A stretch of 9,392 nt of DNA, from NCBI RefSeq assembly GCF_006345805.1, contig NW_021827931.1, forward strand, positions 1-9,392. The letters are read 5' to 3'. Origin of the DNA: Octopus sinensis. Taxonomy: Eukaryota. Made by a program: the position numbers and the translations under genes. Under the pieces are notes generated by a model, which saw only the letters and a program-made list of their open reading frames with translations, did not search any database and was not told the DNA's origin. The number at the start of each line of letters is the position of its first letter. The first letter of the stretch is position 1. Below are positions 5,042 to 6,412 of the stretch, one piece after another.

Positions 5042-5333
5042 TATCAGTAGTAAAATAGGGTAAAATTAATTAATTTGGAATAATCATTAATTTCACCAAG
5101 TAGATTTCGGCATGTAAAAGCCTCGTTCGAGGAAATTTAAGTAATACTAAGTAATTAACGGTTTAGCAACGATTTGCCTCACCACACACCGAATTTAGAA
5201 ATAGCAGTCAAAGAGTTATAGCTATTCTTTCTACTAAAAGGGAGATCTCAGTAAAACCACAGCACTTGAAAGGCAAACACAAACAGGCAAGAGAGAAAGA
5301 AATGATAGCAATCTATCATACAATTTTAAGTCA

Positions 5334-5424
5334 CCTACGGACGTACGTTTCGAAATTAAGTTTTAGGAAAGCATAAGAATTAGATAATTATGTCTTACCC
5401 AACTTCTTCTCTCATCAGCGTAGG
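5334..5424 (-). ncRNA. Type I hammerhead ribozyme, canonical core
   Basis: Minus strand: CCUACG (stem I 5') - CUGAUGA - 60-nt stem-loop II (GAGA...UUUC) - GAAA - C GUAC G - UC^ - CGUAGG (stem I 3'). All core nucleotides present with a GUC triplet; predicted cleavage between 5340 and 5339. Confidence 0.88.
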
Positions 5425-5916
5425 ACACTACAATTATGAATAATTGTATATTAAATTTCGAGATACTAGAAGGCATCATCTCAACTCAGTATCAGAGCGA
5501 GCTAAAACCGTTACCAGTATCACTAAATTCAAAGTGTGAATGAAAGTTTGTGTCAGCAACCCCTTCCCACCCGCGTGTAGCCAAGACAAGATGTTGCGGT
5601 CATTTACTGGGATGAAATATGGTTATCAGTAGTAAAATAGGGTAACATTAATTAATTTGAAATAATCATTAATTTCACCAAGTAGATTTCGGCATGTAAA
5701 AGCCTCGTTCGAGGAAAGTTTAAGTAATACTATGTAATTAAGGGTTTAGCAACGATTTGTCTCACCACACACCGAATTTAGAAATAGCAGTCAAAGAGTT
5801 ATAGCTATTCTTTCTACTAAAAGGGAAATCTCAGTAAAACCACAGCACTTGAAAGGCAAATACAAACAGGCAAGAGAGAAAGAAATGACAGCAATCTATC
5901 ATACAATTTTAAGTCA

Positions 5917-6007
5917 CCTACGGATGTACGTTTCGAAATTAAGTTTTAGGAAAGCATAAGAATTAGATAATTATGTCTTACCCAACTTCTTCTCTCATCA
6001 GCGTAGG
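5917..6007 (-). ncRNA. Type I hammerhead ribozyme, second copy with stem III variant
   Basis: Identical to 5334-5424 except plus-strand 5925 C>T, giving GAAAC-GUAC-AUC^ (AUC triplet, C.A mismatch in stem III). Predicted cleavage between 5923 and 5922. Confidence 0.8.
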
Positions 6008-6412
6008 ACACTACAATTATGAATAATTGTATATTAATTTCGAGATACTAGAAGGCATCATCTCAACTCAGTATCAGAGCGAGCTAAAACCGTTACCAGT
6101 ATCACTAAATTCAAAGTGAATGAAAGTTTGTGTCAGCAACCCCTTCCCACCCGCGTGTAGCCAAGACAAGATGTTGCGGTCATTTACTGGGATGAAATAT
6201 GGTTATCAGTAGTAAAATAGGGTAAAATTAATTAATTTGGAATAATCATTAATTTCACCAAGTAGATTTCGGCATGTAAAAGCCTCGTTCGAGGAAAGTT
6301 TAAGTAATACTAAGTAATTAAGGGTTTAGCAACTCTTTGACTGCTATTTCTAAATTAGGCAAATCGTTGCTAAACCCTTAATTACTTTGTATATATATAT
6401 ATATATATATAT

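Follow-up and report, generated by a model that had tools for sequence, protein, structure and literature searches.

A tandem, hammerhead-bearing element of putative retrozyme type inserted in (TA)n-rich sequence of Octopus sinensis

The closest described systems are the animal non-LTR retrozymes, whose units measure 51 to 972 bp across families (bioRxiv 10.64898/2026.07.22.740005) and for which a circular template is the published model (PMC7229834, PMC7761336, as far as their accessible text goes), and the Penelope-like elements (PLEs), from whose pseudo-LTRs (pLTRs) animal retrozymes are argued to derive in the available part of the same preprint. That origin is argued there mainly from vertebrate phylogeny, with other organisms lying outside the preprint's tests. 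Two hammerhead architectures are described in the available portion of PMC4209133: the canonical metazoan hammerhead has helices of 6 bp and 4 bp and a short palindromic helix III and folds as a dimer, and the minimal PLE hammerhead has a helix II of 7–8 bp, an extra nucleotide after A9 and no helix III loop. For cephalopods, a giant squid paper gives 235 Rfam hammerhead-1 loci without detail, the word "hammerhead" does not occur in the O. vulgaris repeat paper, and a literature search found neither a cephalopod retrozyme case nor hammerhead ribozyme literature on Octopus bimaculoides. The family described below was not found in print; Repbase, Dfam and the O. vulgaris library lay outside this search and may list it.

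The sequence analysed here, hereafter the window, is a stretch of 9,392 nucleotides from O. sinensis (assembly GCF_006345805.1, contig NW_021827931.1, positions 1 to 9,392). A preliminary description, made without database searches, had proposed that it contains tandem non-coding units with a hammerhead ribozyme in each, belonging to a non-autonomous retroelement.

Tandem units and their hammerhead motifs

The repeat comprises 2.22 units in total, beginning at positions 5043, 5625 and 6205 (Table 1). The two full units are identical at 570 of 583 alignment columns (97.8%), with private changes present in each, and the GC content of the unit is 35.5%. The 2.2 direct repeats of about 98% identity given in the preliminary description are therefore confirmed, as is the lack of an ORF within them: the longest ATG-started frame on the minus, ribozyme-bearing strand of the repeat encodes 38 aa, no long ORF is found at the locus, and a Pfam scan of 20 of the 62 stop-to-stop frames of the window identifies no RT or GIY-YIG family, with a single chance-level match (E 0.04). 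The tandem units end at 6333, as in the extent initially given (5042..6333), however the element continues to approximately 6389 by way of an inverted piece.

Table 1. Coordinates of the features of the element and its flanks within the window.
Feature	Position	Strand	Details
(TA)n-rich microsatellite, flank at the 3′ end of the element	4739..5044		TRF array, period 2
Unit 1, 3′-terminal	5043..5624	-	582 bp; 3′ end at about 5043-5045, TAT common to unit and flank
Intact type I hammerhead motif	5334..5424	-	Core CUGAUGA 5418-5412, GAAA 5351-5348, GUC, predicted cleavage after 5340
20-nt perfect palindrome, just 5′ of helix I	5429..5448	-	Unit 2 copy at 6012-6031
Unit 2	5625..6204	-	580 bp
Second hammerhead motif	5917..6007	-	Core CUGAUGA 6001-5995, predicted cleavage after 5923, G16.2-to-A at 5925
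Part unit, 5′-truncated	6205..6333	-	129 bp
Inverted piece	6332..6392	+	Reverse complement of unit positions 5144-5217, 12-nt deletion
(TA)12 flank at the 5′ end of the element	6390..6413		From the sequence

Scanned on both strands for hammerhead motifs, the window yields two type I hammerheads and no more, each of them on the minus strand, in agreement with the earlier account of one such motif at the same place in each full unit. The predicted cut sites lie 583 nt apart, corresponding to a 583-nt monomer from 5922 to 5340. Among 5000 dinucleotide shuffles of unit 1, the strict motif is found in none and a loose motif in three. The copy at 5424-5334 is complete for the core CUGANGA, GAAA and NUH elements and for helices I–III. 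Helix I consists of six Watson-Crick pairs with a short extension, and helix II of 4 bp directly after A9 followed by an interrupted arm, leaving 60 nt between CUGAUGA and GAAA; helix III is minimal and lies within a palindromic octamer.

The motif is thus present in 2/2 full units, however the two are unequal, as the copy at 6007-5917 has an A at position 16.2. The triplet at 5925 reads GUC in unit 1 and AUC in unit 2, where it stands opposite an unchanged C15.2 and creates a C·A mismatch (15.2-16.2) in helix III. Natural AUH hammerheads carry a U at 15.2, according to the available part of PMC1636495. The helix III octamer duplex is estimated at -11.2 kcal/mol when the intact octamer pairs with itself, compared with -7.9 for the intact/mutant pairing. 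Since the mismatch would adjoin the 5923 site in a double hammerhead, established hammerhead geometry predicts cleavage after 5340 but weak cleavage after 5923. With its upstream hammerhead mutated, the locus is predicted to release monomers poorly, and the 583-nt circle initially expected from it is doubtful.

An Rfam scan of the whole window, with E-values up to 5, lists no hammerhead. When Hammerhead_1 is applied to a chosen 181-base stretch, it matches 5334-5424 on the minus strand at 23.2 bits, under the gathering score of 34 and with an E-value of 0.0012 that is flattered by the choice of stretch; the Rfam check proposed in the preliminary description therefore recovers the motif on that stretch but nothing window-wide. 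In the alignment, a 56-nt stretch replaces 10 model positions, and the 60-nt helix II arm accounts for a hammerhead score below the Rfam threshold. Exact patterns for the window hammerhead have no matches in metagenome contigs or in viral contigs. In the unconstrained minimum free energy fold the hammerhead core is sequestered. The circular monomer folds with z-scores of -3.9 and -3.2 on the minus strand and 0.0 on the plus strand relative to shuffles, other stretches of the window reach -3.8, and none of the 120-nt windows is significant; the monomer z-score is indistinguishable from these window controls and was discarded as evidence.

Insertion structure and surroundings

Both ends of the element adjoin TA repeats, and the TA-rich microsatellite at 4739..5044 is likely the insertion target. 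As the insertion lies within a microsatellite, a target-site duplication is unreadable. At the opposite end the element is 5′-truncated, with the part unit breaking off at 6333, and the inverted piece, identical to the unit at 59 of 61 aligned letters (blastn E 3e-17), overlaps the truncation point to form a long hairpin (fold z -9.1 and -9.5, 0/200 shuffles) before its last letters merge into the microsatellite. This overlap with the break, together with the few letters shared with the microsatellite, gives the inverted piece the geometry of twin priming, known from the 5′ inversions of L1 elements (PMC2837659, accessible portion). The available part of PMC8557442 attributes to PLE insertions a truncated 5′ end, partial tandem copies, inversion of a copy at the 5′ end and (TA)n targets; three insertion traits of this type, namely the 5′ truncation, the inverted 5′ piece and the (TA)n target, are found at the locus. 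Neither end of the element is a ribozyme cut site. The 3′ end lies approximately 297 nt downstream of the cut site, which fits internal RT initiation; according to the accessible text of PMC11167929, an anole PLE has been shown in vitro to start reverse transcription at internal sites, which set its 3′ end.

Several other repeats surround the element. Lying between TA tracts, the stretch 4290-4740 contains an apparent decayed further hammerhead, with a motif at 4447-4500 on the minus strand comprising a core with a U4-to-C change, GAAAC, a palindromic loop and GUC. This motif scores 14.1 bits against Hammerhead_1 (E 0.93 on a chosen stretch) and is absent from the relaxed motif scan; the stretch is possibly the remnant of another PLE family. 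Rfam microRNA matches over the hairpin at 6308-6391 and over TA tracts fall far under their gathering scores and were rejected. Downstream, a 707-bp near-palindromic structure (6626-7332) has 219-bp arms that are 98% complementary and inner arms at 6862-6928 and 7048-7114 around a TA-rich centre, and may have arisen as an inverted duplication or by an inverted insertion of MITE-like or PLE type. Several copies of a SINE-like repeat that contains a (TG)n tract, presumably an octopus SINE, are found at 552-1290, 2087-2470 and 3818-4230 and inverted at about 320-500, with a 189-bp internal tandem duplication in the copy at 560-1038; a literature search with a 20-letter word of this SINE found no match. 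Two further tRNA-like, SINE-type stretches with A/B-box-like heads are recognisable by eye at about 7521-7860 and 8367-8700, and ARAGORN calls no tRNA in the window. An 11-bp purine-rich minisatellite of about 12 degenerate copies occupies 2593-2723.

Related copies in public sequencing runs

Part of the stretch is contained in 20 of the 24 public runs listed, with a maximum of 0.42 of its words, and the runs may for this reason represent other species or subfamilies. No run containing it is recorded as RNA; one of them, X1, may be an RNA run but does not serve as evidence of expression here, because contigs do not reveal transcript ends, strand or level. Four runs were mapped onto one circularly permuted unit with the inversion (5754-6400), and contigs mapped in all four (2265, 1031, 454 and 122; these are contig counts and not copy numbers). 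The contigs come from at least three organisms and fall into identity bands from below 90% to above 99%, and such wide bands across runs show a diverged multi-copy family. Within 5917-6009, seven substitutions are found among the 40 rows listed (20 further rows exist): one restores a C-G pair, two swap G·U and A-U pairs in helices I and II, and the remaining four are in loops. A single-locus unit with an unconserved core, one part of the outcome that the preliminary description had named as its refutation, is not what is observed, as the family is multi-copy and 0/7 listed ribozyme variants are in the core. Positions 5943 and 5984, in the helix II arm, have small insertions listed. The intact letter at 5925 (C on the plus strand) makes up 103886 of the 104111 depth in X17 and 16501 of the 16507 in X20, and in X18 and X1 it makes up the whole depth; because it holds nearly all depth in 4/4 runs, the AUC triplet is private to the window copy.

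The head-to-tail junction at 6204/6205 is bridged by two of the 32 pieces listed (3898 further pieces exist), one from X20 (record 32, depth 356, 8 other letters in 80) and one from X1 (record 7, 17 other letters). With this much divergence neither piece can originate from the window locus, indicating that the ORF-less tandem form is not unique to the window. In X1, three contigs terminate in loose (TA)n ends, one at the unit boundary 6204 and the other two nearby at 6219; all three come from this one run and belong to the 24 loose ends listed (207 further). Another copy carries an inversion of a different kind, seen in an X17 contig that connects 6037 with 6254 on the opposite strand. In each of the four runs, contig depth falls at 5974-5995 and 6084-6127 (unit 2), where loose ends carry other letters; subfamilies appear to differ in the tip of the helix II arm and in a region upstream of the ribozyme. 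The contigs are short and cannot resolve whether some copies adjoin an ORF.

In the family, the palindrome immediately 5′ of helix I also occurs in a variant form, which on comparison by eye departs from the window sequence at two compensatory pairs and at a single letter of the loop; the variant is the loose-end consensus at 6036 from 20 contigs of run X17, and DNA-level palindrome repair could be an alternative source of its compensatory pairs. A candidate short intron downstream of the cut site (GT at the 3′ strand of helix I, a pyrimidine tract and AAG) resembles an intron that the Drosophila Penelope element reportedly contains. It was dropped as a mere look-alike, and no splice-like joint downstream of the cut site is present among the seven joints listed.

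Origin, proposed cycle and comparison with known systems

With a probability of roughly two in three, we read the locus as one insertion of a non-autonomous, PLE-derived element of retrozyme type, probably copied in by a Penelope-like RT/endonuclease. This retains the core of the preliminary description, a non-autonomous ribozyme retroelement moved by a Penelope RT, with the insertion structure and the multi-copy family in its favour, but not with confidence its 583-nt circle. In the proposed cycle, a tandem source copy would be transcribed on the minus strand and neighbouring hammerheads would pair through their palindromic helix III into a double hammerhead, predicted from its anatomy to cut at GUC. 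Cleavage would yield monomers of approximately 581 nt, which a host ligase may circularise. A PLE enzyme would nick (TA)n sequence and prime at a constant position within the unit, some 297 nt downstream of where the ribozyme cuts, more than two units would be copied from a circle or an uncut multimer before an early stop, and a second priming or template switch would add the inverted 5′ piece. As one private change damages the upstream ribozyme, the resulting copy is itself predicted to be a weak monomer source.

The locus is accounted for just as well by an uncut multimeric transcript as by a circular template. In the available part of PMC11167929, the ribozyme of an anole PLE is dispensable for insertion and unprocessed RNA is the main substrate, and RNA-seq ends at the cut site were not found; as this element inserts without its ribozyme, a circle is not required for tandem copies. 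For frog retrozymes, one of nine predicted dimers was cleaved in vitro (bioRxiv 10.64898/2026.07.22.740005, accessible portion). It also weighs against the favoured reading that no autonomous partner was seen in the material analysed. The fuller proposition, an abundant and unannotated cephalopod family with an active dimeric hammerhead whose 60-nt helix II arm escapes standard models, a circular RNA of approximately 581 nt and rolling-circle copying by a PLE RT into (TA)n, is put forward as a tentative one. If true, the locus, with its 2.2 units, both cut sites read through and a 5′ end formed by twin priming, would directly record the cycle, and the thousands of family insertion ends would make the model of retrozyme mobilisation by PLEs testable in an invertebrate.

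The strongest alternative is that the units are the pLTRs of an autonomous PLE and that the locus is a 5′-truncated insertion in which only the multi-pLTR end was copied. Autonomous PLEs do form partial tandems and inverted copies at the 5′ end and do target (TA)n sequence (PMC8557442, available part), their hammerheads reside in pLTRs (PMC4209133, available part), and the 190 PLE families of the O. vulgaris assembly together cover 6.83% of it. However, it is the whole unit and not a part of it that is repeated, the copies are not separated by an ORF, and the same ORF-less junction is found in copies elsewhere; among the 24 loose ends listed, none looks like an exit into unrelated coding sequence. 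The window hammerhead is also canonical rather than of the minimal pattern that the accessible text of PMC4209133 gives for PLEs, and it differs from the catalogued hammerhead of Hydra-1_Obim. Four unit words and the core box, in RNA letters, have no matches in the part of the PMC8557442 supplement that was available, and the ends of Naiad_Obim, Naiad_Ovul and Naiad_Omin are unlike the unit by eye. The preliminary description had cautioned that the novelty would drop if the unit were the terminal repeat of a catalogued PLE, and neither words nor eye reveal a match of that kind in the available supplement. On balance this alternative is unlikely. The "HHR_half_core" of Naiad_Ovul, considered separately as a source, shows no likeness by eye.

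Considerably less probable is that a single copy was inserted and afterwards duplicated by unequal crossing-over or slippage, leaving the hammerhead as a passenger in a small satellite. The two units are nearly identical (about 98%) and depart together from the family majority at some letters, for instance at 6212 and 6287, a SINE in the same window has its own local 189-bp tandem duplication, and local amplification is allowed in the available text of bioRxiv 10.64898/2026.07.22.740005. A solo insertion, however, would not supply the identical head-to-tail junction found in diverged copies elsewhere, and the inverted 5′ piece points to retrotransposition. The least probable explanation is a retrozyme mobilised by a LINE rather than a PLE, or a non-functional hammerhead motif due to chance: twin priming in L1 also yields 5′ inversions (PMC2837659, accessible portion) and the motif is under the Rfam gathering score, however the element lacks a poly(A) or simple-repeat tail that belongs to it, the combination of (TA)n targeting with tandem copies fits PLEs (PMC8557442, available part), the motif arises in 0/5000 shuffles and its variants respect the helices.

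Judged by its sequence, the retrozyme-type element favoured here qualifies as an animal non-LTR retrozyme. It shares with these elements the tandem non-coding units, each with a single type I hammerhead in an equivalent position, a GC content under 45%, many genomic copies and a unit within the range of 51-972 bp. Differences are that the tested invertebrate circles, at approximately 170-400 nt, are shorter than the window unit, and that the window element has a 60-nt helix II arm and one of its two ribozymes mutated. The monomer was initially described as longer than known animal retrozymes, which is correct relative to the 170-400 nt in the available part of PMC7229834 but not relative to the 51-972 bp of the preprint. 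Since the class, the size range and the PLE link are all published, none of these three is new, and the locus opens no new class.

With the pLTRs of EN+ PLEs (Neptune, Hydra and Poseidon, as described in the accessible parts of PMC4209133, PMC8557442 and PMC11167929), the element shares a hammerhead located a few hundred nt from the 3′ end, the 5′ truncation, the inverted 5′ piece, the (TA)n target and a 3′ end away from the cut site. It differs from them in having no ORF and a canonical hammerhead that is not of the Hydra-1_Obim type, and its inverted piece stops short of the 3′ end of the element, more like twin priming. Compared with the minimal PLE hammerhead, the window motif has a 4-bp helix II directly after A9 and a palindromic helix III loop. 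Long helix II or loop 2 hammerheads are represented by sCYDV-RPV(+) (PMC1636495) and PLE-X1 of Selaginella (PMC8557442 supplement), both known here from part of the source, and the likeness lies in an extended helix II of short segments and internal loops or in a loop 2 of about 30-35 nt; the window hammerhead differs in its 60 nt between core boxes, its animal type I motif and its dimer-type helix III.

What is distinctive in the sequence is the 60-nt helix II arm, together with the clear traces of a PLE-type insertion on a unit of canonical retrozyme type. An arm of this length implies that score thresholds and short-loop descriptors can miss whole families of hammerheads, and the combination of a canonical retrozyme-type hammerhead with a PLE-type insertion structure supports mobilisation by PLE enzymes from a template longer than one unit.
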